The position numbers and the translations under genes are program-made. The notes under the pieces are model-generated. The model saw only the letters and a list, made by a program, of their open reading frames with translations, had not been told where the DNA came from and made no database searches. A stretch of DNA of 64,000 nt from IMG/VR virus record IMGVR_UViG_3300042691_037350, positions 58,475 to 122,474 of that record, one strand, 5' to 3'. Shown piece after piece: positions 7,240-42,659 of this stretch (its first letter is position 1; every line of letters starts with the position of its first letter). This DNA comes from a virus.

Positions 7240-10200
7240 ATGAGTCATGATATTATCACAGATACATTGAGCATTGGTACTGGTATACCATATGACACTA
7301 TTATATCTACAGAATCTGGTGTCAATACTGTATTTAATCAGAATAAAAAAAATATAGATTTTGAAATTAGAGGCACAGGGAACTACGCTTCTTTATACTA
7401 TGATGCATCTGCCGGTAGATTAGGCATAGGCACAGGTTTACCAGACGCAGTATTGCATGTTATAGCGCCTTGTGCTAAAGATGGACTAATTTTAGAAAGT
7501 ATTACTAATTGTCCCACTGGTGTCACCCTCCTATTAGTGCATAATCCACAAACCCCACCACAAACTGGAAGTTATCCCGCCATTATCACCCTCGCTGGTA
7601 GAGACACTAATTATAATGAAATTGCCTATGGTCAAATTAAATCTAGGATATTAAATCCTGTTTCTTCTTCTACCAGTGGAGAAATTTTGTTTTTGGTTGA
7701 TCATACCGGTGTTGCTAAAGAAGTATTTGTTGCTGGGCTTACTAATTTAGTATTAGGGGCAAATAACAATGTATCTGGTTTTGCTTATGAAGTTATAGGG
7801 CATAATAATAAAGGATCCGGCAATTATTATCTCAATATAGGTTCCAATAACTCCGGATCATTATTAAATAATTCATTAAATATTGGCAATGCAAATATTA
7901 TACGCGGACCACACCTTTTCTCTATATCTAGCGATTCTTCTTTAAATGGTAGTGGTCTTTTCGCTTTAGGTTTTGATAATTTAGTATCGGGCAACAATTC
8001 TCTCGTATGCGGCTCTAATATTGTTAGTACTGGTATTAATAGTTTATTAATCGCCAATAATAGTAATATTAGTGGTGGTTATACCATAGCGCTCATACAA
8101 AATTCTACAATTTCTGGTGCTTCTGGTATAGTTTTAGGCACCAATACTAGTCTATCAGGCAATAATAATATTGGTATAGGTAATAATAATAATATCAATG
8201 GGCATTCAACAAACGTAATTGGTTCTACTGTAACCTCTTCTGGTAACAGAAATGTTATATTTGGAAATAATGTATTTTTGAGTGGTAATAATTTAATTGC
8301 GGTTGGATCCAATCAGATTGCATCAGGTATCAATGATGGTATTTTTATTGGTAACGATTTTGATTTAATTAATACTAGAAATGTTTTATATATAGGTTTT
8401 AATAATACTACCGAGTCTGGTTTGGCAAATAGTGTTATTCTTGGTGCTAATAATGATCTAGATAATGGTAGAATATCTCATATCCTATTATTGGGTCAAA
8501 ATAATACTACTAAAGATATAGAAAATTCTGTTATAATAGGAAACACAAATAACGCAAGCGGTACTCTCAAAAATAATATTTTAATAGGTAGTGGCAATGC
8601 GTTAATAGCAAATAATTATAATAATATTTTCTTGGGCGCTTTAAATAATCAAACGGGCGTATATATTAATTCACAGGGAGAAGTAAGCGGCAATCCATTA
8701 GCTATTAATGCGAATAACACTAATTCTATTTCCATTGGAACACAAAATCTTTCCACATTAAGTAATTCAAACGTATTAGTGGGAAATAAAAATATAGTAT
8801 CTGGTTTGAATGTTAGTGTTTTAGGATCTTTTAATAATCTAAGAAATACTAATAAAATATATGTATTAGGTAATTCTAATTATTTAGAAGGTGAAAATCT
8901 TATAGTATTAGGTAAAAATATTTTTGGTTTAGGTAAAGATATTATTGGTATTAATAATACTGACTTGCCAATGGATATATATGGTAGTGGTTCTGTTTCC
9001 ATAGGTAATAACACGGTAGTATGTAGTGGCATAGCGGTTGGTCACGGCAATAATATTAACGGTGTTTCTGGATTAATTTATGGTAGAAACAATGCTCTTG
9101 GTATTGCCAAGCACATGTTCACATACTCTATTGCAACACCATCGCAAATTAATATAAATGGTTTAGTTGGAGCCTTCTATAAAGAAAATGATGAAGTCTT
9201 AGTACAGGTAAAAAATCCTGGTGGTACTGATAACTTATATAAATTTCAATTAAATTCTGTTGTTGAAGATACGTTTAATACTAGAACCACATTAAATTTA
9301 GGCGGAGTTATTAATACCGCTGGATTATCTAATAGATACTATGTATTAAATAATAGTTTTGATGATAATAATGCTCCTAATACTGTGGGTAGTGGTATTG
9401 TTATAGCATTAAAAAACTACGAAGCCTCAAAATTTTATGGTTCTAATAATATAGTGCTTGGTAGTAATAATAATGCTTTATATAGCGACAGCATTCTTAT
9501 TGGTAATAGAAATAATTCGTCTGGTAATAATACTATTGTTATTGGTCATGGGATTAGCGGAGTAGGTGATGGTTCAGTTCACATTGGTACTTCTAATGCT
9601 AATAAACTAATTCTAGACAATACTCAGATAGTTATAAACACCGGTACCGTACAACAACAAATTGTGGTTAGAGGTTCTAACGGTAATATTGTAGAATATC
9701 ATGATTTAGTCAATTCTAGACTCGGATTAAATAATTCATCACCAAGATCATCATTAGATGTAAGCGGCGTTGTAACAGCCCAAGCTTTTAGAATGGGTTT
9801 ATCTACTACTAGTGGCTCGGTACTAACCGCGGATGCTAGTGGGGTTGGGTCATGGGTATTGCCGGTCAATTTATCTGGTACTAATCAAGGATTACTATTT
9901 AGAGTTAGTGATAAAGTAGCTAGCGGTATAGATAGTATACGTTATGTTAGTGCTAGTACTGGTATTAATTTTTATGATAATATTTATATTTTAAGAAATT
10001 CTGGCATTATTGTTAATGCTGATAAAGGTACTAATATACTACCAGCCACGTTTACCGTTTGGGGTTCTGGAGGTGCGTTTGCTCCCAAGTTAATGGAATT
10101 ATTACCAGCACAAAATGTAGCTAATTTTTATAGAATGACTGCTGAGTCTGGTACCTTAACAGGTTTAAGTGTAAATACAGCTATTAATATTCCAAGAAGT

Positions 10201-11514
10201 TTAACCGGCACTTTCTTATATGCTACTACAGGAGGAAATCTTTTAAGTCAAACAGTTTATCCTCATAATGTTTTATTTAGCACATCAAATTCATGGGCTA
10301 GTGGAAATACTAAATTTAGATGGGTTGATCATCAGTCCACATTAGTTTTGGGTCAAACATCTGGCATAGTTTCAACAACACTATCTACCAATCCACTAGA
10401 TACTACATATAATATAGTATTAAGTTCAGACTCTACTATTAATACATCATTTAATAATAGAGGACTAGCCAATGTCTTTTCTGTTTATAGATCAGGCGAT
10501 GCTGGTACGTCTACGAGACAAGGTTTTCATATACTGCCATCTAGTGGTCAAGTAGGTATTAACACCACCACTGGAACTATTTTAAGTAGCGATGCTTCTC
10601 TTTATGTTAATGGTAAGATTGCAGCAAATGCACTTAAACTTAATTCTAATTCCGCAACAGGGCTATATCTTAGAACAACAACAAATGGAGATATAGTGAC
10701 GGGTGGATTAGATATTTCTGTTGGTTTTAGTGGTACTTATCCTGTGAGAGCCACAACAAATACTGTTACAAATGTGGTAACTGTTGATTTAAACCCACTA
10801 AAGTCTAATAATTCTAGTTTTGAGTTAAATGAATATGGTAGAACTTTGGTTCATAATGGAACTAATTGGGTTGTTGGTTCTGGTTTACAGGTATGGCAAG
10901 ATACTAATGGTAATGGCATAAAGGGATTGTCGTTAGGTTATGGTGGTTCTTTAGGTGGTTCTGATGATGGTAATCCAAATTCATATAACGGTATAGTGTC
11001 TGCTGGTGGATCATTTAACTTGGGTAGTCCTATAAAAAGAGGTTCTTCTCAATTTAGTCAATTCTTCTTAAGAACACGCTCTTCAGATACTAATCAAACT
11101 CCATATTTTACTATGAATTGGCAGACAACGGATGTATCATCGCAATCTAGATCAACATCCAATACTATTAAATTTCCCACTAGTAAACACGGTGTTTGGA
11201 CATATACTGCATATGTTAATGTTTTATGGTCAGATAATCAGGGTAATAATAAAGGCGCAGGAGGTTATGTTTTACAGGGAACGGTAGCTAATATAGATAA
11301 TACAATAACACAAGTCGGTAGTGGCACTGTCATAAAGAATGTATCTAGTACTACTCCCGCTAATAATGTGTCCATTGAATTAAACACGTATGGTGGTTAT
11401 AATGTTATGGATTTAAGAGCATCTGGTGTTGGTGGATATGTAATGTTGTGGTCAGCCACCGTTGATATCAATCAATTACATTGGTCAACATCAGAATTGT
11501 ATACTGCTACTTAA
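7240..11514 (+). CDS. Tail fibre / receptor-binding-like protein with YadA-head-like Gly-Asn repeats
   Basis: Fibre-shaft motifs GRLGIGTGLPDAVLHV, RLGLNNSSPRSSLDVSG and GQVGINT. Many ~14-aa (I/V/L)GxxNxxxGxxxxx repeats over about 7750-9600. Follows the tape measure gene. Confidence 0.65.
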   Translation: MSHDIITDTLSIGTGIPYDTIISTESGVNTVFNQNKKNIDFEIRGTGNYASLYYDASAGRLGIGTGLPDAVLHVIAPCAKDGLILESITNCPTGVTLLLVHNPQTPPQTGSYPAIITLAGRDTNYNEIAYGQIKSRILNPVSSSTSGEILFLVDHTGVAKEVFVAGLTNLVLGANNNVSGFAYEVIGHNNKGSGNYYLNIGSNNSGSLLNNSLNIGNANIIRGPHLFSISSDSSLNGSGLFALGFDNLVSGNNSLVCGSNIVSTGINSLLIANNSNISGGYTIALIQNSTISGASGIVLGTNTSLSGNNNIGIGNNNNINGHSTNVIGSTVTSSGNRNVIFGNNVFLSGNNLIAVGSNQIASGINDGIFIGNDFDLINTRNVLYIGFNNTTESGLANSVILGANNDLDNGRISHILLLGQNNTTKDIENSVIIGNTNNASGTLKNNILIGSGNALIANNYNNIFLGALNNQTGVYINSQGEVSGNPLAINANNTNSISIGTQNLSTLSNSNVLVGNKNIVSGLNVSVLGSFNNLRNTNKIYVLGNSNYLEGENLIVLGKNIFGLGKDIIGINNTDLPMDIYGSGSVSIGNNTVVCSGIAVGHGNNINGVSGLIYGRNNALGIAKHMFTYSIATPSQININGLVGAFYKENDEVLVQVKNPGGTDNLYKFQLNSVVEDTFNTRTTLNLGGVINTAGLSNRYYVLNNSFDDNNAPNTVGSGIVIALKNYEASKFYGSNNIVLGSNNNALYSDSILIGNRNNSSGNNTIVIGHGISGVGDGSVHIGTSNANKLILDNTQIVINTGTVQQQIVVRGSNGNIVEYHDLVNSRLGLNNSSPRSSLDVSGVVTAQAFRMGLSTTSGSVLTADASGVGSWVLPVNLSGTNQGLLFRVSDKVASGIDSIRYVSASTGINFYDNIYILRNSGIIVNADKGTNILPATFTVWGSGGAFAPKLMELLPAQNVANFYRMTAESGTLTGLSVNTAINIPRSLTGTFLYATTGGNLLSQTVYPHNVLFSTSNSWASGNTKFRWVDHQSTLVLGQTSGIVSTTLSTNPLDTTYNIVLSSDSTINTSFNNRGLANVFSVYRSGDAGTSTRQGFHILPSSGQVGINTTTGTILSSDASLYVNGKIAANALKLNSNSATGLYLRTTTNGDIVTGGLDISVGFSGTYPVRATTNTVTNVVTVDLNPLKSNNSSFELNEYGRTLVHNGTNWVVGSGLQVWQDTNGNGIKGLSLGYGGSLGGSDDGNPNSYNGIVSAGGSFNLGSPIKRGSSQFSQFFLRTRSSDTNQTPYFTMNWQTTDVSSQSRSTSNTIKFPTSKHGVWTYTAYVNVLWSDNQGNNKGAGGYVLQGTVANIDNTITQVGSGTVIKNVSSTTPANNVSIELNTYGGYNVMDLRASGVGGYVMLWSATVDINQLHWSTSELYTAT

Positions 11515-11551
11515 TAAAATTAAGAGGACATGTTGATAGGAATAATAATAT

Positions 11552-13153
11552 ATGTCATATATTAAATATGGATCATTTAACTTTATCGCTGATAGCGGTT
11601 ATCCTGTACCTCAAATTTCTATATCGGTTGATCAGGATCGAGATGGTGCTGGTCGTGCCATTGGCTCAAAAACAGTAATAAGTTTAGAGGGGCTCGTATA
11701 TGCTGCTAGTGGTAGCAGAGGATTTGAAATATTAACTTCTAAAGAGAGTGGTTTAAGAGAAGCTTTTAGATACGATGGTCAGTTATTACAAATAGGTTGT
11801 ACGGGCGTGGGCGGTTTAAATTTGCCTCCGTATTTTTCTGGATATCCAAAAGTTAATAGGTATACAGCAGATAAAACAGATAACTATTGGGTAAATACGA
11901 TAGCCTATAGTATAGAACTACAAATAGAAAGTAGTGGTAATGGTAGTGGAATATTTGCTGTTTCTAGTACACAGGATGAATGGAATATAGAAACATTAGA
12001 TGATAACTCATTTGTTAATAATCCGGTCGGTGCAAATATCTTGAGACAAGCCCTGACCATCCCAGAGGGTTCGGGTTTTCCAACGTACAGAGTTAGTAGA
12101 ACACTAGGCGCGGTGGGTAAATTCATACCAACAGGCCCAGGCGGATCAGGAATAAGTCCGGTAGAAAATGCTAAAAAATGGGTAACATATCAAGCATCTA
12201 CTGGTATAAATATTAGCGGCATTATTAGTGGATTACAACTTTATAATTTTACTAGAGCTATTAGTCTTAGTGATATTGATGGTTCATATAGAATCACAGA
12301 CAACTGGATAGCCGTACCGTCTGGAGCATTAAATGGAAATTATATAGAGTCGTATACAGTAGAGAGTTCACTAGATAATTCTTATTTAAGAAGTGTTGTT
12401 TTGAACGGTACTATAAAAGGTTTAGAGCCATTTAACACTGGGGTTATTTATCAAAGCACAACTTTAGGTAGTGGTATAAGCGGCAGTTTATATGCCACCG
12501 CAGCCGGCCCAGTCAGAATAGGTAGCACTAGTAAATTTGATAAAGCAATATCTGGATATAGTGGCATTAAAAATAGACTCTATGATAGAGCACAATCGTT
12601 TTTGGCAAAATCTAATGATCCTAGCGGCATCTTTAGAAGATTTTTTGGAAAAGACGAAGCCGGACTCAACCCACTGCCACTTTCTATCACAGAAGGCTTT
12701 AATCCCACAGAAGGTACCGTAACATATAGCTGGACCTATAATAATAGACCATTAAATCTGGTTAGCGGTTCTATTAGTGAAGTATTAAGTGTAAACGATA
12801 ATTTCCCCACACAACAAGTTGCAGAAATTTTTGTTTTGGGTAGAAGATTGGGTCCGATTTTACAAGATCTTGGAACTTATACCACTGCTAGTAGAGACGT
12901 TACTTTTGAAGTCATAATGTTAAGACCTACTGGTTTAAGCGGACTAAACTTTCCCAAAACAGCCTATACAGCTATTACTGGTATAGTAGAAACATTTAAT
13001 CCTGCTTATTTATTTGGTGCTGGTAACCAATGTAAATCGTTTGTTAAAACTAATACAGAAAATTGGAATGTGTCCGAAGGTAGATTTGTTAAAACTAAAG
13101 GTTGGTCATGGACAAAATGCGACGATGTTCCTGGTGCAAATCCGAATTTATGA
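11552..13153 (+). CDS. Putative tail structural protein (distal-tail / tail-tip like)
   Basis: 533-aa beta-rich ORF in the tail block. Called from position and composition only. Confidence 0.4.
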   Translation: MSYIKYGSFNFIADSGYPVPQISISVDQDRDGAGRAIGSKTVISLEGLVYAASGSRGFEILTSKESGLREAFRYDGQLLQIGCTGVGGLNLPPYFSGYPKVNRYTADKTDNYWVNTIAYSIELQIESSGNGSGIFAVSSTQDEWNIETLDDNSFVNNPVGANILRQALTIPEGSGFPTYRVSRTLGAVGKFIPTGPGGSGISPVENAKKWVTYQASTGINISGIISGLQLYNFTRAISLSDIDGSYRITDNWIAVPSGALNGNYIESYTVESSLDNSYLRSVVLNGTIKGLEPFNTGVIYQSTTLGSGISGSLYATAAGPVRIGSTSKFDKAISGYSGIKNRLYDRAQSFLAKSNDPSGIFRRFFGKDEAGLNPLPLSITEGFNPTEGTVTYSWTYNNRPLNLVSGSISEVLSVNDNFPTQQVAEIFVLGRRLGPILQDLGTYTTASRDVTFEVIMLRPTGLSGLNFPKTAYTAITGIVETFNPAYLFGAGNQCKSFVKTNTENWNVSEGRFVKTKGWSWTKCDDVPGANPNL

Positions 13154-34269: not shown

Positions 34270-35936
34270 TTAATACTATCCTTCATGTGAGCATAATTAA
34301 TATAATCTTCTGGATTTAATTTATCTAAATTATTTTTAGCCGTTTGGGCAAGATTGTGATTTCTAATAATCGTATTAAGTATATCCAGAGCTTTTTGTGT
34401 GTTGTATCCTTCTGTTGATAGTCCTTGGTTGATAAATCCATAATCTATATCCCTAATCATATTTAACATAATCATAGAAGATCCTACCTGATGATTTGGA
34501 AGATGTTTCGATACCAAGAATGTGATTAAGTCATATGGTGTGCTAATATTCTCAGGCACATCAGATATTTCTTGCATCAGCGGGAGTATCTGATCCCATT
34601 GTCCTTGTAATCCAGTTAATTGAATACTATCAAAATATTTTTCCCATTTTTTGGCTATATCATCCCAATTATAGTGTTTTTCTGTTAGTTTCCTGGTTTC
34701 GAATCTTTTTTGTTCCTTGAGAGGTTCTGGCATCTTATAAAAAGACTCTAGAATATGTATTAAATTTTCATTATCTGGAAATACTCTAATCGCTCTAGTC
34801 TCTAATTCTTTAAAATATTGACCAACTTTAATTGGATACCCATTAACCTTTCTAACAACGTCACTCATAGCGCTATAATCGATAGAAGATATTGGTACAC
34901 CACACGCAGATGCTTCTACTTGTGGCATACCGAATCCTTCACATATTGCATACTGAACATAGATATCAAAAAGATTCATTACCGCCGCAAGATTTTGTGA
35001 GGATATCCCATTACTAACATTAGGCATACTACATGATTTCTGACCACATCTAGTACAAACAGCGACTGGATGCTGAAACAGAGAAGGGTAAAAATGTCCA
35101 CAGCTTTTACATGAGTATGTGAATAGTACTCTGTTTCCTATTTTGTATTCCTTTAAGAGTTGTGGAATATCCCACCCAGCATCTGGATAACTAGTGTGTA
35201 AATACAGATAAAGGTTTTTGCCTAATTCATGATTGTTTGTGCGTTCGCATTTTTCTAATAGCTTTTTAATAGCATAGAATAAATCTGGAATTAATTTACG
35301 TTTTTGATTGCGCATAACAGAACCGACAATAAATAAATCTTCGCTAAGACCAAAAGCCTTGCGAAGTCCTTTGCGATCAGTTGCCGGTACAAATGTTTGT
35401 AAATCTACGCCTGGAGATGTTGTGTCTATGTAATTTATTTTATTATTGCTTTGTTTAGCAATGGTGTCTCTGCCGAAATCGGAGTATGTAAATACAGCGT
35501 CAGCATGCAAAAATGTATCTATCCATTCTTCTTGTTGTGGTTCAGAATCGACAGTGGGCATCAAAACCCAGTGGAAAAATGGTCGTAAAGGAGAGAACTG
35601 TTGGTACGAATTCATCCAGTAATCTCTAACATCGAATACCACATCCGGCTTAAAGTCCAGCAAAACCCTTTCAAATCTCCATCTACCGAACTGATTTTCT
35701 GATGATGATTGATATTCAGGATATCTTGGATCTTTTTCATCTACGGCATTCGCATAATATTTCCAGTCAATACTAACATCTTTTGGATCATTAGTTTTAC
35801 CATAACACGCTAATTCAGCGATATCATATTTACCTGTAGCATGTAATCTTTTTAAGATCTCTTTGGCATAAGTTCCAAAGCCTGAACTTAAGAAACTAGC
35901 TTCTGACACCATCAAAATTTTAAGTTTTTTATTCAT
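34266..35936 (-). CDS. Glycosyltransferase family 4 with a zinc-ribbon insert
   Basis: KILMVSEASFLSSGFG, PGVDLQTF, VMRNQKRK, EGFGMPQVEASACGVP. CKSC...CTRC insert at about 35043-35111. Confidence 0.88.
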   Translation of the reverse strand: MNKKLKILMVSEASFLSSGFGTYAKEILKRLHATGKYDIAELACYGKTNDPKDVSIDWKYYANAVDEKDPRYPEYQSSSENQFGRWRFERVLLDFKPDVVFDVRDYWMNSYQQFSPLRPFFHWVLMPTVDSEPQQEEWIDTFLHADAVFTYSDFGRDTIAKQSNNKINYIDTTSPGVDLQTFVPATDRKGLRKAFGLSEDLFIVGSVMRNQKRKLIPDLFYAIKKLLEKCERTNNHELGKNLYLYLHTSYPDAGWDIPQLLKEYKIGNRVLFTYSCKSCGHFYPSLFQHPVAVCTRCGQKSCSMPNVSNGISSQNLAAVMNLFDIYVQYAICEGFGMPQVEASACGVPISSIDYSAMSDVVRKVNGYPIKVGQYFKELETRAIRVFPDNENLIHILESFYKMPEPLKEQKRFETRKLTEKHYNWDDIAKKWEKYFDSIQLTGLQGQWDQILPLMQEISDVPENISTPYDLITFLVSKHLPNHQVGSSMIMLNMIRDIDYGFINQGLSTEGYNTQKALDILNTIIRNHNLAQTAKNNLDKLNPEDYINYAHMKDSIK

Positions 35937-35959
35937 ATGAAAATAGTTTTAAAGAAAAG

Positions 35960-35991
35960 AAAATAAAAATAGGGGGTTATGCACCCCCTAT
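35960..35991 (-). terminator. Rho-independent terminator downstream of ssb
   Basis: 9-bp stem ATAGGGGGT / ACCCCCTAT (35969-35991) with a 5-nt loop, followed on the - strand by TTTTATTTTCTTTTC. Confidence 0.8.
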
Positions 35992-36006
35992 CTTTAGATT
36001 AACCTA

Positions 36007-36384
36007 TCAGAATGCTACGGTCTCATTTTCTTCTGTCTTATTCTTCTTAGATAGCTTTGTGATCTTAGAAAAATTATTAACACGAACCTTTAGAGTACTA
36101 TGCTTAACGCCATCCTTCTCCCACGAGTCATTTCGCAAGGAACCTTCAACTAACACGAGATCACCCTTCTTAAAAGAATCAGCTATAATCTCAGCGCCAG
36201 TATCCCACGCTTCGCAAGAGACAAATGTAGTTACCTTATCCTTGTCTCCATTAGACTTAGTATACTCGCGTGACACAGCCACCGTAAAATTAACTACAGT
36301 GGTTTGTCTGCCGCCAGTATTAACTACCCTGACTTCTGGATCACGAGCTAAGTTACCTCTTAAGATGTTAATATTCATATTCAA
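36007..36384 (-). CDS. ssb: Single-stranded DNA-binding protein
   Basis: GNLARDPEVR, FTVAV, CEAW, KKGDLVLVEGSL (bacterial SSB OB fold). AAGGAG Shine-Dalgarno upstream. Confidence 0.95.
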   Translation of the reverse strand: MNMNINILRGNLARDPEVRVVNTGGRQTTVVNFTVAVSREYTKSNGDKDKVTTFVSCEAWDTGAEIIADSFKKGDLVLVEGSLRNDSWEKDGVKHSTLKVRVNNFSKITKLSKKNKTEENETVAF

Positions 36385-36416
36385 ACTCCTTGATGTGAAA
36401 AACCAAATTACAAAGT

Positions 36417-36444
36417 ATTATAAAAACCGTGGGTGTGGTGTCAA
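36417..36444 (-). promoter_or_regulatory. Sigma70-type promoter for ssb
   Basis: TTGACA-N16-TATAAT on the - strand. The -35 box contains the TGA stop of the dnaE C-half. Confidence 0.8.
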
Positions 36445-38066
36445 GATTTTGCGATGTAAGCCTTTTCTACTATCAATGAATCACCGGCTTTCGATCTGTT
36501 GCCCTTGACTATAATAACATTGCTACCAAACAATAGGTTTCTATAACTTCTGTATTGATCTGGAAAGAAGACCACAGAATCCAAAACACCCGACCCGTCA
36601 GTTAATGTAACAAATGCCATTTCAAGTCCAGGATTTTTCCCAGTTTTAGTTTTTGTAACGCTAATATTATCAACTTCACCACATAAAATAATATTGTCTT
36701 TAGATAGACTATTTTTAAATTCTTTGCATGTCATATTAGTCATACTAATATCATACATATCCACTTTAGAACATGTAATGCTACACCCTAGGGTTTCTTC
36801 TTCTGTATCAGCAATCCACTCTGGATTGTCTTCTAGAGCATATGGCGGTTTATGTAATGTATTCAACAAGTTTTGTACTACTAGTAACCTATTTTTATTT
36901 AGCTTACCAACCCTTATTAAACCAGTAAGAGCGTCATTAAGATTATTATAATTATATATATTAGTTAAGATATGAGATATTTCTTTTTTGGTCAGTTCAT
37001 TAATAAGACTTAACTCAAATAACATAGCGTTTCTGGTTTTCTTTAAAAAAGACAACGCTCCGCTTTGTATAAGAGATTTGGCTGCTGTAGAATTAATATC
37101 TGTTAGGATCATAAAGGCCAACTGTATCCAGTTCACGGCATCAAGATTGATTTGCTTATTTTGTATAAGACTAACTAATTTATCATAAACAGCATTGCCA
37201 AAACCTTTAATATCGGTCAGTCCAAAATAAATTTGATTATTTTTGAGTATAAATAATTTATTTAGATGCCTAATATCTGGTGTGCTTACTGTAATATCCA
37301 TTTCACTAGCATTTTGAACCAATTCTTTGATTTCTGATTTAGGATCAATTTTATCTTTAGCAAATCTTAGGTATGATGCAAAAAATATTTTTGGGAAGTG
37401 AGCTTTTGTATATGCAGATAAGTATGCATTAATAGCATAGCTGACAGCATGAGATTTATTAAAAGAATATCTTTGAGATTTCTCGATCCAGCTAAAAATT
37501 TGATCTGCCTCGTCTTCCGTGACCAAATTAAGGTTTTTAGCTCCAAATAAAAATTTGGATTTGACTTTTGCCATTTCTTCTGGTTTTTTCTTACCAATAG
37601 CTTTTCTTAACATGTCTGCTTCTTGCAAATTAAAACCAGCAATTACTTTAGCAATTTCCATTGCCTGTTCTTGATAAATCATTTCTCCATAGGTAGTCTT
37701 TAAAATTGGTTCTAGAGACGGGTGGAAGTGATCAATAGTTTCTTGTCCATTTTTTTTATCTATATAATGATTAGTAACACTTTTACCATCTCTAATAGCC
37801 TCTAAGCATCCGGGTCTAAGAATACTAATCAATGCAGATAGTTCTTCTATATTAGATGGTTTGAGTTTTTTGGCTATAGATCTGCCAAGTCTTGATTCTA
37901 ATTGAAAACACCCTTTGGTATTGCCATCAGAGATCAAGTCCCAAGTTTTATAGCATTCCAAATTGATCTTTTCGATTTTAGGATCAAAAGATAGTTTCAT
38001 ATCATCTCCGTCTCCAGAGATAATATCAAATGAACAGCCACAAGGATACTGAAATTTCCTAGACAT
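36441..38066 (-). CDS. dnaE: DNA polymerase III alpha, C-terminal half (fingers, HhH, OB fold)
   Basis: GCFQLES, ILRPG, YQEQAM, ADMLRKAIGKKK, YSFNKSHAVSYA, FGLTDIKGFG, MAFVTLTD. Confidence 0.93.
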   Translation of the reverse strand: MSRKFQYPCGCSFDIISGDGDDMKLSFDPKIEKINLECYKTWDLISDGNTKGCFQLESRLGRSIAKKLKPSNIEELSALISILRPGCLEAIRDGKSVTNHYIDKKNGQETIDHFHPSLEPILKTTYGEMIYQEQAMEIAKVIAGFNLQEADMLRKAIGKKKPEEMAKVKSKFLFGAKNLNLVTEDEADQIFSWIEKSQRYSFNKSHAVSYAINAYLSAYTKAHFPKIFFASYLRFAKDKIDPKSEIKELVQNASEMDITVSTPDIRHLNKLFILKNNQIYFGLTDIKGFGNAVYDKLVSLIQNKQINLDAVNWIQLAFMILTDINSTAAKSLIQSGALSFLKKTRNAMLFELSLINELTKKEISHILTNIYNYNNLNDALTGLIRVGKLNKNRLLVVQNLLNTLHKPPYALEDNPEWIADTEEETLGCSITCSKVDMYDISMTNMTCKEFKNSLSKDNIILCGEVDNISVTKTKTGKNPGLEMAFVTLTDGSGVLDSVVFFPDQYRSYRNLLFGSNVIIVKGNRSKAGDSLIVEKAYIAKS

Positions 38067-38754
38067 TAGTAGTAAAAGAATCCTTAAACTTAATTTTTTG
38101 AGCCAGATTTCTATGTAATTTTAAAAATCTAATCAATATTTCTGCACAATCCTTTACGTCTTTTAGGGCGTCGTGCGCGCCTTCTTTTGATAGGCCAACA
38201 TAATCCCTAACAGAGTCCAGAGTATAGCTTTTAAGGTCATTATTGTATTCGAACCAATAAAAAATCAAATTCATTATATCTACAACATCTCTAGGGAAAA
38301 ATACGCCTGATGTACCTTCTTTATTTGTGTTGCCATACTTTACGCTTAGCCTGTCTATAATTTTAAGGTCAAACCTATTAATATTATATCCTGCTGCTAT
38401 TGGTGCGGTAAATTGACTTTTTTTAGATGATCTAGTATGATACATATCTAAATAATTAACAAATAATTTCCACGAGTGTTCTTGAGATGGATAGTTTTTC
38501 CACTGTGATAAAACCTCATCCTTAGAACAACTTTTTACTCTAGCGTGAAAATCTAGAATATCTGTTGTATAAACATAATTATCATCACTTGCCAATACTT
38601 CTGGTTTAAAAAATATATTAAATTCAGATTTGGGTATAATTTCTAACTTTATAGGATCTATCATAAGAGCAGCGATTTGTACAGGACTACACTGCTTTGG
38701 GTCAGATCCATCTGTTTCAAAATCAAAAACACAAATTTTGTTATAATTAATCAT
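38059..38754 (-). CDS. DEDDh 3'-5' exonuclease (DnaQ/epsilon-like)
   Basis: ExoI FDFETDG, ExoII GYNINRFD, ExoIII HDALKD. Confidence 0.88.
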   Translation of the reverse strand: MINYNKICVFDFETDGSDPKQCSPVQIAALMIDPIKLEIIPKSEFNIFFKPEVLASDDNYVYTTDILDFHARVKSCSKDEVLSQWKNYPSQEHSWKLFVNYLDMYHTRSSKKSQFTAPIAAGYNINRFDLKIIDRLSVKYGNTNKEGTSGVFFPRDVVDIMNLIFYWFEYNNDLKSYTLDSVRDYVGLSKEGAHDALKDVKDCAEILIRFLKLHRNLAQKIKFKDSFTTNV

Positions 38755-38929
38755 TAATTTCTACTTCTGTAATAGGTATAACTTGGATCTTAGTATTGGT
38801 GTCATTTACTTGTGAAGCATTATTCACATGACAGCAACTTACTCTTTCATCTGGAATTTTAACATACTCGATTCCATTAAGTGTAAATTGTTGACCTATT
38901 TGTACATCAATAAACTTTTTTAAAGACAT
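38747..38929 (-). CDS. Small beta-rich hypothetical protein (60 aa)
   Basis: Fills the gap between dnaE-N and the exonuclease. AGGAG lies upstream in the end of dnaE-N. Contains a CCH motif. Confidence 0.6.
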   Translation of the reverse strand: MSLKKFIDVQIGQQFTLNGIEYVKIPDERVSCCHVNNASQVNDTNTKIQVIPITEVEIND

Positions 38930-38933
38930 AGTA

Positions 38934-40805
38934 TTATTTATCTCCTAAAATATCTTGAATAGTCATAATTTTGTCTAACATTGCAACACCAAGTATATCA
39001 AACTTAATTATACCAATAGATTCTAAATCTTGCATCTCCATACCAGCGATTAATTGCTTATTTTTGGAATCATAAACCATTGGACATGCTTCGTTCAAAG
39101 GCAATGCGCTGATTGCGATACCCGCTGCGTGTTTTGACTGATTGGATTTCGTACCCTCTAATCTAATAGCCTGCTCAAAGCGTTTGGCAAGTGGTCCTTG
39201 TAGTTCATTTTTTTCATCGATAAAGCACCATTCTTTTAGCTTATCGGGATTATTCTCTAGGGCCCATCTAATAATAGAAGCTTCTCCTGTTTCTTCTTTC
39301 ATTTCTTGAAGATCATCTGCTATTTTAGCTTCGTCTGGAATATTTTTTGTAATCTTATTCATTTCATCGAAAGAAATATTTCCATAAACTCTTAATACAT
39401 CCTTTAAAGCACCTCGGCCTTTAATAGTATTGAAAGTAATCATTTGCGACACTTTATCGTGACCATATTTAGTCTTGATATAGTCGATAATAATCTCTCT
39501 TTTATTAATTGGTACGTCAACATCTATATCTGGCATGGAAATATGATCTTTAGAATTACGTCCAGCATTATAAAATCTATCAAACATTAGATTATATTTC
39601 ATCGGATCGATACTGGTAATTCCAATCAAATAAGACACTAGGCATCCGGCAGCACTACCTCTACCTGGACCGGGAAGCCAACTGTTCTGTCTAACATAAT
39701 TGACAATATCTTGTACGATCAAGAAATAACTAGAAAGACCAGCACCCTGCAAAACTTCTAATTCATATTTAATTCTATTTACGTATTGCTGTTGATCATC
39801 CTTATTAATACTATTAGCTATTTTGTCTCTCCATCCTTCTCTACATAATTGTCTAAGATATTCGTCTGGATTATAGCCGGTAGGGCATGTAAAAGGAGGA
39901 AGTCTTGGTTTACTTAAAACATTATATTCTTCACAAAGATCAGCTACCAAATTAGTATTTTCTATTTCTGCTTCTGTATGCAAGCTATTCATTTCCTCTT
40001 GAGAAAGTAAATGAAAATTATCAGAAGTAAAAAAGCATGAGAGAGGAACTTCTTCATCATGACTTATTTTTCTACTAATTTCAGGAAAAGTAGTTTTTAA
40101 ATTATTACATAATAGGATTCTTTGATCATTAGCGTCTTCTTTTCGACAATAATGAGCATCTGGGGTACAAACAACTTTTGTGTTACTAAGTTTACCCAAT
40201 TCTCTAATAATATCAGTTAAATCTTTTTGAATAGGAGTATTATTCATATCCATTAATTGTGCTTCCAAAAAGAAATTATCTTTACCAAATATATCTTTTA
40301 AAGAACCAATTTCTTTCAGACCTACTTTTTGCCAATCCTTAATTATAGCATTATTTTGTATTAGTTTATCAGCAAGCAGTGACCCAAGATGGCCGCATAT
40401 ACCTATGATATTACCATCACAAAACTTGGAAAGACTCTTGAGATCAAGTCTGGGTTTATGATAATAAAAGTCTGGCCTATTAGACTCGGAAACCAATTGA
40501 ATAAGCTTATTCCACCCATTCAAATTTTTTGCTAATACCAAAAAGTGAGTAAGATCCTTATTGGTTTTATCTTGTATAACTGGATCTTTATCACACAAAT
40601 AAATCTCACAACCAAGAATGGGCTTAATTCCCTTGGACTTCATTTCTGAATAAAATTTAACAGCCCCGGCTATATTGCCGTGATCTGTTAAGGCGCAAGC
40701 AGTAGCGCCTATTTCTTGACATCGTTCAGAAATTTGAGACGGTTTAGATAATCCATCCAACAAACTAAACATCGAGTGACAATGGAGAGGTATATATTTT
40801 TTCAT
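38934..40805 (-). CDS. dnaE: DNA polymerase III alpha, N-terminal half (PHP, palm, thumb)
   Basis: HCHSMFSLLDG, TDHGN, GCE, DAHY, GPGRGSAAG, PDIDVD, HAAG, KFDILG. Confidence 0.95.
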   Translation of the reverse strand: MKKYIPLHCHSMFSLLDGLSKPSQISERCQEIGATACALTDHGNIAGAVKFYSEMKSKGIKPILGCEIYLCDKDPVIQDKTNKDLTHFLVLAKNLNGWNKLIQLVSESNRPDFYYHKPRLDLKSLSKFCDGNIIGICGHLGSLLADKLIQNNAIIKDWQKVGLKEIGSLKDIFGKDNFFLEAQLMDMNNTPIQKDLTDIIRELGKLSNTKVVCTPDAHYCRKEDANDQRILLCNNLKTTFPEISRKISHDEEVPLSCFFTSDNFHLLSQEEMNSLHTEAEIENTNLVADLCEEYNVLSKPRLPPFTCPTGYNPDEYLRQLCREGWRDKIANSINKDDQQQYVNRIKYELEVLQGAGLSSYFLIVQDIVNYVRQNSWLPGPGRGSAAGCLVSYLIGITSIDPMKYNLMFDRFYNAGRNSKDHISMPDIDVDVPINKREIIIDYIKTKYGHDKVSQMITFNTIKGRGALKDVLRVYGNISFDEMNKITKNIPDEAKIADDLQEMKEETGEASIIRWALENNPDKLKEWCFIDEKNELQGPLAKRFEQAIRLEGTKSNQSKHAAGIAISALPLNEACPMVYDSKNKQLIAGMEMQDLESIGIIKFDILGVAMLDKIMTIQDILGDK

Positions 40806-41845
40806 TCAACGCTTCCTGGTGCTTTGTACTTACCTACAGTATAGCCCGGAGACGTGTATTCGTCAATAATATGATTTATACCTTTTAGCCCTATGTCATG
40901 TTTAATCTGTTCACACTTGGTCATGCACTTGTCTCTTGCTGTTACCTGGCCGTCTCTATATTCTATAATCGGTAACGTATTCGAATTCTCAAACGTGGTT
41001 TTACCAAAATGACATAATTTAGTACATTTCCATGTTTTACTTAATTTCGGAATTTGTGTATTTTTAATAGCTTCAAATTTTTTACGTAGCATTTCCTCTG
41101 TTGATAATAAATCATTTTTATCATAACATATGGTAAAAGGCCCACCGTCATTAATAAAATTGATAGAGACCATCACATGATCAATATCAGGATATAGTTG
41201 ACTTACGGCATAATGATAAATTTTTAATTGAGGATCATTTTGTAACTTATCGTGGGTTTTTTCCTCTCCTGTGGCCCAATCTAATCTTTTACCGGTTTTC
41301 CAGTCTATAATCTCTATAGTATTATCATCAGCCTTTGTAATAAGATCTATAGTACCTTTAATAGCTAAATTACCCTCAATGATTTCTCCTTGATGATTGT
41401 ATTTAAACTTAGCCCATTCTCTCTTTATTTCTATATCAAAATGTTGTTCTGGCTGTAAAATAATCCTGTTTCTTGGATCAAACATCCCATTATTGCTGGT
41501 CAATGCTTTATTAACCCAAGAATGGCAATCTTTATAGTCCTTTAATTCCCACTCATGATGAGTAAATTTACCAATATAATAGTTATATACTTTTTCTACA
41601 ATAGTATTTAAGCTATATTTAGACACACTTACTTTACCGATCACATCGTCAATAATTTCGCTTTCTTTATTTTGTTCAGCTAATTTAATACAGGCTAGGA
41701 TTTCTAATACCTTGTGTACAATGGTGCCTTTGTCTGCTTTTTTATTAGAAGGAGACCTCATACCCAAGACATACTCTAGAAAATATTGCATTTCACAAAA
41801 GGAGTGTGTTCCGTAGCTAGAGCTTCTAAGATATGTGATAATCAT
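40802..41845 (-). CDS. PD-(D/E)XK exonuclease (RecB/AddB/Cas4-like) with possible Fe-S cysteines
   Basis: FCEMQY, GTIVHKVLE, EQHF, GTIDLI, IIDWKTG, QLKIY, C-terminal CTKLC...C. Confidence 0.82.
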   Translation of the reverse strand: MIITYLRSSSYGTHSFCEMQYFLEYVLGMRSPSNKKADKGTIVHKVLEILACIKLAEQNKESEIIDDVIGKVSVSKYSLNTIVEKVYNYYIGKFTHHEWELKDYKDCHSWVNKALTSNNGMFDPRNRIILQPEQHFDIEIKREWAKFKYNHQGEIIEGNLAIKGTIDLITKADDNTIEIIDWKTGKRLDWATGEEKTHDKLQNDPQLKIYHYAVSQLYPDIDHVMVSINFINDGGPFTICYDKNDLLSTEEMLRKKFEAIKNTQIPKLSKTWKCTKLCHFGKTTFENSNTLPIIEYRDGQVTARDKCMTKCEQIKHDIGLKGINHIIDEYTSPGYTVGKYKAPGSVE

Positions 41846-41994
41846 TTATTGTACCTCGCTACTTTTTGACATATTTGTATAAACTCTTTATCGGTCATGT
41901 GCATTTTCATGGTATTGATTTTTTTATGTACCCACTGTACATTTCCTTTCGTATATCCACCAGAGCTATCTATTCTATCTAAAGATGCCGTCAT
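41842..41994 (-). pseudogene. 50-aa C-terminal remnant of an HNH-type (His-Me finger) homing endonuclease, absent from the ORF track
   Basis: Hand translation gives MTASLDRIDSSGGYTKGNVQWVHKKINTMKMHMTDKEFIQICQKVARYNK*, with the SLDRID..GY..GNVQWV...N.MK signature. Its stop overlaps the nuclease start (ATGA). Confidence 0.75.
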
Positions 41995-42017
41995 ATTTGA
42001 ATTTCTGAAATATGTAA

Positions 42018-42659
42018 TTATAATGGTAATATTCCTTTATCTTGTAAAAAATTAAAAATCTGTTGATTTCTCTCTGAAAGCGTTAAATTATGATTTTGTA
42101 TAACTAGACTAAATTTTGACCAATCATAGCTGTTTTGGTCTAAAGCTTTTTCTGCTTCGGTTTGAGCGGAGAATGGATCTCTGGCTAAACGAACAACAAA
42201 ACCGCCCGCGTCCAGTACGCTATTTACTTCGTTAGGAAAGCGATTGTCTAATATAATAGCCAAATCCATTGCTTCTTTTTGAATTTTAATCATTGTGGCG
42301 TCTACCCAAACGTTATTTTTTAGCTTACGAAAAATGCCGGTGCCGACAACCTCCATTACTTGTCTAGCTGTCATATATTCATTTTTAGCTACTTCTTCTA
42401 GGTGTTGTTCAAAAATATCTTTTGGCAAATCTTTCCATCTAATAGATGTTAAAGTATTCTTATCATCATCGCTACCATAACACTGTTCATATGAGAGTCC
42501 TAGTAGATTCATACATATGTCTTGTTTCAAAGGATCAGCAAAACTATATAGCTTATATCTTATGCCAAGATCATATTTTTTAATCAAATCTTGAACATAT
42601 TCTCCGGAAGTACTTTTGCCAGATTGTTTGCGTCCAGAGAAAGCTAAAATTCTTGTCAT
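42018..42659 (-). CDS. Deoxynucleoside monophosphate kinase
   Basis: SGRKQSGKST P-loop, SFADPLK, TARQVMEVVGT, DNRFPNE. Confidence 0.88.
   Translation of the reverse strand: MTRILAFSGRKQSGKSTSGEYVQDLIKKYDLGIRYKLYSFADPLKQDICMNLLGLSYEQCYGSDDDKNTLTSIRWKDLPKDIFEQHLEEVAKNEYMTARQVMEVVGTGIFRKLKNNVWVDATMIKIQKEAMDLAIILDNRFPNEVNSVLDAGGFVVRLARDPFSAQTEAEKALDQNSYDWSKFSLVIQNHNLTLSERNQQIFNFLQDKGILPL

Follow-up and report, generated by a model that had tools for sequence, protein, structure and literature searches.

The window, the whole stretch of viral DNA that was analysed (64,000 nucleotides), encodes a DnaE polymerase in two proteins. All family C DnaE domains are present, but they lie on two ORFs with two genes between them, and not on one polypeptide. 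We consider it quite probable that the replicative polymerase of this phage is built from separate polypeptides.

Organization and domains of the split polymerase

From 36441 to 40805 the ORF list gave four tightly coupled minus-strand genes in the order dnaE-N, orf60, DEDDh exonuclease and dnaE-C. This order had been described in the initial annotation, and the ORFs, the Pfam matches and independent contigs agree with it. The features are as follows.

40802..41845, minus strand: PD-(D/E)XK nuclease gene, conserved left flank (PDDEXK_1, E 2.5e-20)
38934..40805, minus strand: dnaE-N, 623 aa; PHP, palm and thumb, with the PDIDVD and KFDILG aspartates (ORF, Pfam, PHROGs, PDB phmmer)
38747..38929, minus strand: orf60, 60 aa (...RVSCCHV...); predicted SH3-like beta barrel with invariant CC, C32 and C33 (ORF, alignment, AF2)
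38059..38754, minus strand: exonuclease gene, 231 aa; DEDDh (DnaQ-like) 3'-5' exonuclease, putative proofreading subunit (Pfam, PHROGs, alignment)
36441..38066, minus strand: dnaE-C, 541 aa; fingers (YSFNKSH), HhH and OB (ORF, Pfam, PHROGs, PDB alignment, AF2)
37953..38066, minus strand: N-terminal extension of dnaE-C, residues 1-38, with the Cys triad C9, C11 and C38 (alignment, AF2)
36417..36444, minus strand: perfect sigma-70-like consensus, TTGACA, 16 nt, TATAAT (consensus match only)
36007..36384, minus strand: SSB gene, conserved right flank (SSB, E 2.4e-24; synteny)
35964..35996, minus strand: terminator-like hairpin of 14 pairs followed by a T run, 3' of the SSB gene

The module comes from an uncultured freshwater phage.

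The PD-(D/E)XK nuclease gene is directly upstream of dnaE-N in a 4-nt overlap (ATGA, stop on start), and it holds this place in both split and fused relatives. There are 4 nt between dnaE-N and orf60, and overlaps of 8 nt between orf60 and the exonuclease gene and between the exonuclease gene and dnaE-C. The sigma-70-like consensus is situated at the 3' end of dnaE-C, before the SSB gene; promoter-like sites in total numbered 46 against 43.4 in shuffles, which is no excess. No terminator-like site comparable to the hairpin after SSB was present on the coding (minus) strand within dnaE-N to dnaE-C. Contigs from 4 other public DNA runs (4 studies) span 36300-40900 with no differences listed, and a joined dnaE form was absent among them. 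They bridge the dnaE-N/orf60, orf60/exonuclease and exonuclease/dnaE-C junctions, therefore the split is not an assembly artefact.

In Pfam, dnaE-N matched PHP (E 8.8e-36, 124.1 bits, cut-off 26.4) and the full DNA_pol3_alpha profile, positions 1-260 of 260 (E 2.5e-72, 244.1 bits, cut-off 23.9). The protein dnaE-C matched DNA_pol3_finger at profile positions 21-164 of 166 (E 1.7e-46, 158.1 bits) and HHH_6 (41.2 bits), and its OB fold match of 24.3 bits was under the cut-off of 27. Its AF2 monomer model had a mean pLDDT of 83.7. In PHROGs both halves match the same full-length phage DnaE profile, phrog_405, and lie next to each other on it (positions 41-615 and 622-1066 of 1190). As in the family, we take the PDIDVD and KFDILG aspartates of dnaE-N to be catalytic, and nine positions presumed from PHP motifs to be metal ligands look intact.

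The C-terminal end of dnaE-N is ...IIKFDILGVAMLDKIMTIQDILGDK, directly before the stop codon, and dnaE-C begins MSRKFQYPCGCSF...INLECYKTWDLISDGNTKGCFQLES, with QRYSFNKSH intact. Residues 3-611 of dnaE-N align with E. coli alpha 5-563 (5fku), and also with Taq alpha, in PDB phmmer, and the protein stops 12 residues beyond the last residue alignable to a solved DnaE; residues 31-523 of dnaE-C align with E. coli alpha 586-1053. On E. coli alpha the break falls at residues 564-585, in the loop from palm to fingers, about 225 residues ahead of FNKSH. YSFNKSH is whole at dnaE-C residues 200-206, and Y200, F202, N203, S205 and H206 are invariant in the alignment of 42 sequences. This alignment confirms the earlier statement that the break comes far before an intact YSFNKSH.

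The single PF07733 match in the 122-kb record is the only DNA polymerase detected, and PolA and PolB gave no match in this record (~82% complete). Since the only detectable polymerase lies in two proteins and no splicing device was detected, the enzyme is most likely a complex of separate proteins. Clamp (PF00712) and clamp-loader genes were also not found in the record at ~82% completeness, therefore the term "multi-subunit replicase" of the initial annotation reaches no further than the core; a host clamp could serve the phage polymerase. Around the module the genes for helicase, primase, SSB and nucleotide metabolism form a full set.

In the reading that we prefer, dnaE-N would provide the PHP domain and a palm bearing the catalytic aspartates, and dnaE-C would provide the fingers with the dNTP-binding FNKSH region, the HhH and the OB. 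Because palm and fingers are on separate chains, the active site would form only upon non-covalent docking of both proteins, and the break would be placed in a surface loop of variable length among DnaE proteins. The four genes would form one transcription unit with coupled translation, so that their products would be made in matched amounts. The dnaE-C extension with C9, C11 and C38 would be an adaptation to the split, most likely a metal-stabilised hairpin on its own fingers domain, and the 60-aa SH3-like protein would be a later, lineage-specific accessory or adaptor subunit.

The exonuclease, orf60 and the Cys triad

The exonuclease matched RNase_T in Pfam (E 1.4e-10, 42.4 bits against a cut-off of 24) and phrog_192, "DNA polymerase exonuclease subunit", in PHROGs (E 5e-22). 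The DEDDh residues D11, E13, D129, H194 and D199 were invariant in 49/49 sequences; we presume that they belong to Exo I (DxE), Exo II (D) and Exo III (Hx4D). It is in line with the earlier suggestion of a dedicated proofreading subunit, and the most probable role for the product of this gap gene is that of an epsilon-like proofreader. Proofreading by the PHP domain rather than by the DEDDh protein may also occur.

The protein orf60 had no family assignment. Among 50 sequences of orf60, F15, K24, C32 and C33 were invariant and the His of "CCH" was variable. The AF2 model of orf60 had a pLDDT of 95.2, and its structure matches were generic SH3/Tudor/KOW-like only (best Foldseek E 0.03, best VIA Z 5.4). 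The family comprises 171 clusters at E <= 1e-3; among the best 150 listed, 139 representatives are of 110 aa or less, and CC is found in 138 of these 139.

In dnaE-C, residues C9, G10, C11, F13 and C38 were invariant in 42 sequences. Across 71 distinct heads of the C-half, C9, C11 and C38 occur together in all of those with the N-terminal extension (60/60) and in none of those without it (0/11). The extension is missing in fused relatives and in some split relatives. Seven distinct split forms are without both the extension and orf60, therefore neither is required for assembly in general. Position 87 is Cys in 55/60 triad heads and also in 5/11 heads without the triad, and no Cys/His column of the N-half tracks the triad. 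Residues 1-30 of dnaE-C are ordered in the AF2 monomer model (pLDDT 83-86) as a hairpin (E4-6/E12-17) with CGC at the turn. It is more likely that the triad pins the new N-terminus of dnaE-C onto its own fingers domain.

A more elaborate arrangement is conceivable but doubtful, namely a metal-dependent Pol III core of all four proteins. Here the triad, with C87 or one Cys of orf60 as the fourth ligand, would bind Zn or Fe-S and form the docking surface for the palm half, and orf60 would be an assembly or processivity adaptor replacing both the covalent link and the clamp. It also supposes that a sister clade was re-fused, although the fused form could also be ancestral: 4 contigs of that clade carry dnaE as a single 1141-1142-aa ORF, the exonuclease gene lies upstream of it, and the halves are linked by a short stretch (...LDKLMDIIPHLPEGCDIENLEDKATW...). 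These fused alleles mean that the split is not needed for function. If such an arrangement were true, it would be novel on two counts: a metal site within family C polymerase fingers, and a replicase whose splitting can be reversed.

The initial annotation had proposed a metal clasp, in which the CGC of dnaE-C (in YPCGC) and the CC of orf60 (in CCH) would bind a common metal ion; the complex would be held together by this site between the two proteins. The invariant CC, in 50/50 orf60 sequences and nearly all short family representatives among the best 150 of 171 clusters, is consistent with it, as are the position of orf60 directly after dnaE-N in coupling with the exonuclease gene and its confinement to loci with the triad (54/54). 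But 6 of the 60 triad heads (L070, L092, L094, L260, L262 and L265) have no orf60-family ORF in the locus, the extension is ordered already in the monomer, the His of CCH is not conserved, and the seven split forms do without either element. The clasp as it was stated is not supported, and we regard it as improbable. Since orf60 occurs only where the triad occurs, it may provide an additional contact.

Conservation, selection and the search for splicing

The order N-half, exonuclease, C-half was kept in 72/79 related viral loci, and fused dnaE was found in 0/79. Six of the remaining seven loci stop at or just past the exonuclease gene, and one has a methylase gene after the N-half. Identity of the N-half among the relatives goes from 93% down to 45%. 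The dN/dS values between the window and relative L001 were 0.032 (N-half), 0.020 (orf60), 0.022 (exonuclease) and 0.028 (C-half); purifying selection is therefore strong on each of the four genes. The initial annotation had named as contrary evidence relatives with an intact dnaE and relaxed selection on the halves. Intact (fused) relatives do exist, but relaxed selection was not seen and the halves are strongly constrained.

The split gene might also be a decaying or non-essential polymerase, with the host replicase in use or with the halves in separate functions. The lack of a detected clamp or clamp loader in the record fits with this, and PHP motif I is cut off by 9-10-nt insertions in some relatives. 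However, this reading is very unlikely given dN/dS of about 0.03 for both halves, catalytic and FNKSH motifs with no variation in the alignments of relatives, an arrangement that persists down to the lowest identities in the survey, and no other polymerase in a record whose replication gene set is nearby.

With the Hint/intein HMMs, neither the halves nor the N tail, C head or orf60 gave a match at a limit as loose as E <= 10, and Rfam gave no family, including introns, at E <= 1 across 35900-42100. As a positive control, relatives L068-L071 have extra breaks, and there the same HMM library did find Intein_splicing/Hint pieces. The split-intein sites of relatives are at N-half 383/384 (L068, L069, L071 and L072) and C-half 205 (L070 and L071), and the pieces are separated by LAGLIDADG or other nuclease-like ORFs. 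The split is thus intein-free, as had been proposed. Although inteins and split inteins are abundant at other dnaE sites of this lineage, we see next to no probability that the halves are rejoined, whether in RNA or through an intein that is cryptic or made of three pieces (N tail, orf60 and C head). Beside the negative searches, orf60 aligned with split-intein N pieces at an hhalign probability of 0.4%. The N tail has 12 aa, orf60 has 60 aa and the C head has 30 aa, ~100 residues in all, and they lack the Cys1, TxxH and terminal HN motifs of the relatives' inteins; ~870 nt with two conserved, selected genes separate the halves. Non-covalent assembly of the halves is left standing as the most likely reading.

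Comparison with known systems

To our knowledge, family C polymerases are regarded as catalytic subunits of one chain, and among split forms the only one widely known is made whole again by an intein. The order PHP, palm/thumb, fingers, HhH and OB is the same here as in single-chain DnaE of E. coli (5FKU, 2HNH) and T. aquaticus (2HPI). The fused phage DnaE of Bacillus phages PK-1, vB_BpsS-36 and 056SW001B is one chain, in contrast to two genes with two more between them; the best identity of this DnaE to a cultured phage is ~34%. We found no description of this two-piece polymerase arrangement in the literature.

In cyanobacteria dnaE likewise consists of two genes, and a split intein joins their products by trans-splicing (Wu 1998; Caspi 2003; both as cited in PMC2677866). 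Those halves carry intein pieces and are at distant loci, whereas the halves here are adjacent, have no intein and are broken much earlier than FNKSH. The same paper describes "fractured genes" in aquatic metagenomes, in which a DnaE split intein is found with a free-standing homing endonuclease (Dassa et al. 2009, PMC2677866). This layout is present at other dnaE sites in relatives L068-L072, but the gap of the conserved break holds a DEDDh exonuclease and a 60-aa protein instead of a homing endonuclease, with no intein.

Split family B polymerases (T4-like gp43, RM378, M. thermautotrophicus PolB and engineered split Pfu) are active in two unspliced pieces according to PMC3061061, and they too are encoded in two cistrons, with the break at the fingers or close to them. 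They are unrelated (B versus C), and here the gap holds a proofreading-type nuclease gene and a large clade has the split as a fixed trait. The split NrdA of phage Aeh1, as presented by Crona et al. (2011, PMC3045599), is a fragmented essential enzyme assembled via new terminal tails at the break, to which the putative Cys-triad extension might be the counterpart; in contrast to that system, no mobile endonuclease is at the dnaE break here. The E. coli Pol III core alpha-epsilon-theta (PMC3664792) also combines a polymerase with a DEDDh exonuclease on its own chain and with a third, very small protein. Here alpha is in two chains and orf60 is predicted as an all-beta barrel. Theta is, we assume, helical and hence unrelated to orf60.

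A very widespread aquatic phage group keeps a two-chain enzyme under strong selection, with the active site apparently shared between chains and the proofreader gene located at the cut. If the pieces reconstitute, they would be a natural system for palm/fingers docking in family C and a ready-made split polymerase for engineering. Together with the fused clade and the split-intein variants, they would then form a series in which an essential gene is broken, stabilised and perhaps mended by mobile-element traffic.

In Rossellomorea phage phiT1 (PV767480) dnaE is cut in the same loop, as gp20/gp19/gp18. Its gp20 ends ...KFDLLGLKTLKVIQNSVDQINQGVAV, gp18 begins MFDILDIPLDD..., and gp19 between them has 49 aa and is outside the orf60 family. 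Unlike the module here, it lacks the Cys triad, and its gap holds no exonuclease gene. phiT1 branches with the Bacillus-phage outgroup, therefore its split is probably independent.

Gene module and position of the cut

DnaE is encoded in the window by two genes, with the active site divided between them and no detectable splicing device, and these belong to a set of four tightly coupled genes. The four minus-strand ORFs have exactly the coordinates and lengths described in the initial annotation:

38934-40805, minus strand: dnaE-N (N-half), 623 aa; Pfam matches to PHP and the whole Pol III alpha core
38747-38929, minus strand: orf60, 60 aa; no Pfam match
38059-38754, minus strand: exonuclease, 231 aa; RNase_T type in Pfam, and phrog_192 'DNA polymerase exonuclease subunit' in PHROGs
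36441-38066, minus strand: dnaE-C (C-half), 541 aa; Pfam matches to fingers, HhH and OB fold

On phrog_405, a full-length phage DnaE profile of 1190 positions, the N-half matched positions 41-615 and the C-half 622-1066, the two matches abutting. The genes lie head to tail: the start of dnaE-N overlaps the stop of the upstream PD-(D/E)XK nuclease gene (ATGA), 4 nt lie between dnaE-N and orf60, and after orf60 there are two 8-nt overlaps (orf60/exonuclease and exonuclease/dnaE-C). No terminator-like site was found on the coding strand inside the module, and a strong one is present 3' of the SSB gene.

The whole viral record (122,474 bases, of which the window is the last 64 kb) is estimated to be 82% complete, and at that completeness it contained one Pol III alpha match and no match to PolA, PolB or beta clamp. 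The Pfam scan took in 85 of the 102 listed ORFs; DnaB, DnaG, SSB, a RecA-like protein, class II RNR, dNMP kinase and dCMP deaminase were identified around the module, and no clamp loader was found among the 85. Megablast gave no close relatives among deposited phages.

When aligned with solved structures of E. coli alpha, the N-half (residues 3-611) covers alpha 5-563 and the C-half (residues 31-523) covers 586-1053, so the cut falls within the stretch matching alpha 564-585. This stretch lies upstream of the first conserved fingers block and downstream of the helix that follows KFDILG, whose aspartate we take to be the third catalytic Asp. In the fused sister allele the link across the same position is short (...LDKLMDIIPHLPEGCDIENLEDKATW...). 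YSFNKSH, the motif at which cyanobacterial DnaE carries its intein, is unbroken in the C-half (residues 200-206), and the cut is not at that site, as the initial annotation had held.

Search for a rejoining device, conservation and distribution

The split had been called intein-free, and the intein HMM check agrees with this: Hint and intein families gave no match at E <= 10 to orf60, to either half, or to the 60-residue ends on each side of the break (C-terminus of the N-half and N-terminus of the C-half). The blank is informative because the same library detects Intein_splicing and Hint pieces at other breaks in relatives. Among related loci, split inteins with a free-standing nuclease gene were found at N-half 383/384 in L068, L069, L071 and L072 and at C-half 205 in L070 and L071, and a contiguous intein lies at about C-half 90 in L068; the intein N pieces of the relatives start with CF(I/L)P.T and carry CT..H.F. 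These extra breaks are matched by the 'fractured' DnaE genes of aquatic metagenomes, with split inteins and homing endonucleases (PMC2677866). We also considered orf60 as an intein remnant and rejected it, none being detectable (hhalign probability 0.4%).

Both strands of 35900-42100 were blank for Rfam families at E <= 1. In four further DNA runs (four studies) the contigs show no difference from the window in this region and span its junctions, with no joined form of the halves among them.

Besides those fractured DnaE genes, the closest kinds are the intein-less split family-B polymerases (T4-like gp43, RM378, M. thermautotrophicus PolB and engineered Pfu; PMC3061061) and the split NrdA of Aeh1, whose pieces are joined through new tails (PMC3045599). 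Full-text searches of the literature gave no account of a phage DnaE that is split without an intein and has an exonuclease gene between its halves; supplementary tables may list such genes. The excerpts of Kazlauskas 2016 (PMC4889955), Timinskas 2014 (PMC3919608), the 2026 bacterial polymerase survey (PMC12926913) and the Bacillus V4 phage paper (PMC10674732) contain no such gene.

An N-half scan of IMG/VR yielded 79 distinct loci (45-93% identity), none of them with a fused dnaE. The gene order N-half, exonuclease, C-half recurs in 72 of the 79; six others stop at or just past the exonuclease gene, and in one (L076) the N-half is followed by a C5-methylase gene, after which the contig ends. 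orf60 was present in 77/79. Against L001, the closest relative, both halves gave dN/dS near 0.03 (N-half 0.032, C-half 0.028) and the two genes between them about 0.02 (orf60 0.020, exonuclease 0.022); values for distant pairs are overestimates because dS is saturated there. All four genes are strongly constrained. Exonuclease residues D11, E13, D129, H194 and D199, unchanged in 49/49 sequences, can be read as the DEDDh set.

The phage type is widespread. For 36300-40900, at least half of the sampled words occur in 18 public DNA runs, and some part of the stretch in 20 rows from 16 studies; two of these rows may be the source sample. No RNA run was found to contain the sequence. Most of the sources are freshwater, and some carry the label aquaculture, food production or 'fungus metagenome'. 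MAG bins also contain copies of dnaE-C (L170-L173 and L225; 60-78% identity), and these copies are probably phage contigs binned with bacteria. Since the bin labels disagree (Chitinophagia, Flavobacteriales, Cyclobacterium, Alphaproteobacteria, 'bacterium'), no host was assigned from these copies.

N-terminal cysteines of the C-half, orf60 and proposed working

The C-half begins with an extension (residues 1-38) in which C9, G10, C11, F13 and C38 were unchanged in 42/42 sequences. We compared the N-terminal ends (heads) of C-halves in all viral loci fetched. The 178 loci with a match gave 71 distinct heads, which were counted in place of loci because many loci are the same contigs fetched twice.

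Residues at dnaE-C positions 9, 11, 38 and 87, with the presence of orf60 in the locus
split; C C C C; orf60 yes; 50 distinct heads
split; C C C C; orf60 no; 5 distinct heads
split; C C C S; orf60 yes; 4 distinct heads
split; C C C T; orf60 no; 1 distinct head
split, no extension; – – D T or – – D C; orf60 no; 7 distinct heads
fused; L V D V or L V D C; orf60 no; 4 distinct heads

C9, C11 and C38 are all-or-none, occurring together in 60/60 heads and in 0/11 of the rest. C87 is a cysteine in 55/60 heads with this triad vs 5/11 without it; a set of four co-occurring cysteines was considered and dropped, as C87 is only loosely linked. orf60 is confined to triad loci (54/54), and its absence from L070, L092 and L094, three divergent triad loci, was checked by unfiltered HMM search in all six frames. 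No Cys or His column of the N-half tracks the triad clades. AF2 modelling of the C-half as a monomer gives an ordered hairpin for residues 1-30 (pLDDT 83-86), with CGC lying at the turn, whereas residues 86-113 have pLDDT <50. A search for longer proteins with C-half region 1-60 found a fused form with a CGC junction in 0/8 candidates, which is weak evidence.

The co-occurrence of the triad, its presence in loci lacking orf60, the absence of a partner column in the N-half and the ordered model lead us to read the triad as a putative intramolecular staple of the new C-half N-terminus. It probably binds metal, and we read it as an adaptation to the split state. The initial annotation had proposed that CGC of the C-half and CC of orf60 share a metal as a clasp. 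An obligate clasp of this kind is unlikely, because 6/60 triad heads come from loci without orf60 and the extension is already ordered in the monomer model; an added contact between triad and orf60 is possible.

The AF2 model of orf60 (50 sequences) is a confident five-stranded barrel (pLDDT 95.2). Its fold matched only generic SH3/Tudor/KOW-like structures (Foldseek vs pdb, best E 0.03; VIA, best Z 5.4), and the ESM Atlas search returned viral hypothetical clusters only. A profile search covering 1.84 billion representatives gave 171 clusters at E <= 1e-3. Among the best 150 of these 171, 139 were <= 110 aa and most of those 56-70 aa, none was fused to DnaE or exonuclease, and the few long matches were repeat proteins. 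The CC is unchanged in 50/50 aligned sequences and in 138/139 of the short representatives among those best 150; the His after CC in the window orf60 is not conserved.

We infer that the halves would dock non-covalently and rebuild the DnaE fold, with the Cys-triad hairpin stabilising the new end of the fingers half and orf60 serving as an accessory adaptor. The DEDDh protein, with its invariant putative catalytic residues, would proofread as epsilon does. The window retains all nine positions that we take to be PHP metal ligands, so proofreading by the PHP domain rather than by the DEDDh protein is possible on residue content.

Divergent relatives, history of the split and other features of the window

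Gene arrangements in divergent relatives of the module
L095: N-half, exonuclease, C-half; without extension and without orf60
L070: N-half, exonuclease, an unrelated 65-aa ORF, C-half with triad
L100: N-half, a 193-aa ORF (orf60-like module, E 2.9e-08, plus acidic tail), exonuclease, C-half with triad
L092 and L094: N-half, several ORFs, exonuclease, several ORFs, C-half with triad and inteins
L093: DEDDh exonuclease gene directly upstream of a fused dnaE
L228 (=L093), L229, L231 and L232: one unbroken dnaE ORF of 1141-1142 aa; sister clade

PD-(D/E)XK nuclease and glycosyltransferase flanks are common to all six divergent arrangements, and an SSB gene is also downstream in L093 and L100. In another relative, L026, about 3.6 kb with several ORFs (8740-12386; one ORF has a prepilin-like N-terminus) lies between the exonuclease gene and dnaE-C, so this junction can accept extra genes.

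Trees were made from representatives only, rooted with four Bacillus-type phage proteins (N-half, 29 rows and 627 columns, with 18 of 54 distinct crown-group sequences; C-half, 27 rows and 539 columns). Fused L093 pairs with split L095 in both, with ultrafast bootstrap/SH-aLRT of 96/94 for the N-half and 99/95 for the C-half, and both rows are long-branched. On these two trees a single split with later re-fusion would be more parsimonious than repeated independent splitting. The AU test (p 0.0925) did not reject a topology that unites all 24 aquatic split rows in one clade.

The dnaE of the cultured soil phage Rossellomorea phage phiT1 (L081, PV767480, 3986-7268) is cut in the same loop as the window gene. 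Its two parts, of 573 and 469 aa, are both annotated 'DNA polymerase III subunit alpha' and flank a hypothetical gene of 49 aa. Unlike the window, phiT1 lacks the triad, any relative of orf60 and, between the halves, an exonuclease gene. As this cut lies outside the aquatic group, the loop seems to tolerate cutting more than once. The dnaE of Bacillus phage Jayan is cut at another place, and those of Bacillus phages PK-1, vB_BpsS-36 and 056SW001B are fused.

In seven related loci (L037, L039, L040, L047, L049, L050 and L051) PHP motif I of dnaE-N is interrupted at about codon 16, between HVHS and HYSLLDG, by a 9-nt insertion that includes an in-frame TAA (TAAGTGACT); in L052 a 10-nt insertion at this point shifts the frame. 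At least two clades thus have the HxH of PHP severed from the remainder of the protein. PHP motif I of the window is intact (PLHCHSMFSLLDG).

A 50-aa ORF (41842-41994, minus strand) lies between the PD-(D/E)XK nuclease and dNMP kinase genes. Its only matches are to the C-terminal end of phage HNH/Endo VII endonuclease families (phrog_3322, profile positions 104-150 of 162, E 8e-16). At this place the related locus L069 has an ORF of 180 aa that ends in the same way. By these matches the 50-aa ORF looks like a truncated homing-endonuclease remnant.

ARAGORN called a 94-nt tRNA-Ile (anticodon aat; 8919-9012, plus strand) within the 1424-aa ORF at 7240-11514; the call is doubtful because of its length and place. 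A run of very large ORFs (3363, 3436, 1424, 1316 and 2655 aa) occupies window 1-26719 (plus strand) and G000:C1:32759-65686, and the 3' part of the 3436-aa ORF is the 2403-aa open-ended ORF at window 1-7212. Almost none of them has a Pfam match; the 3436-aa ORF has a PhageMin_Tail (tape-measure-like) domain, and several neighbours have Mtd_N and collagen repeats.
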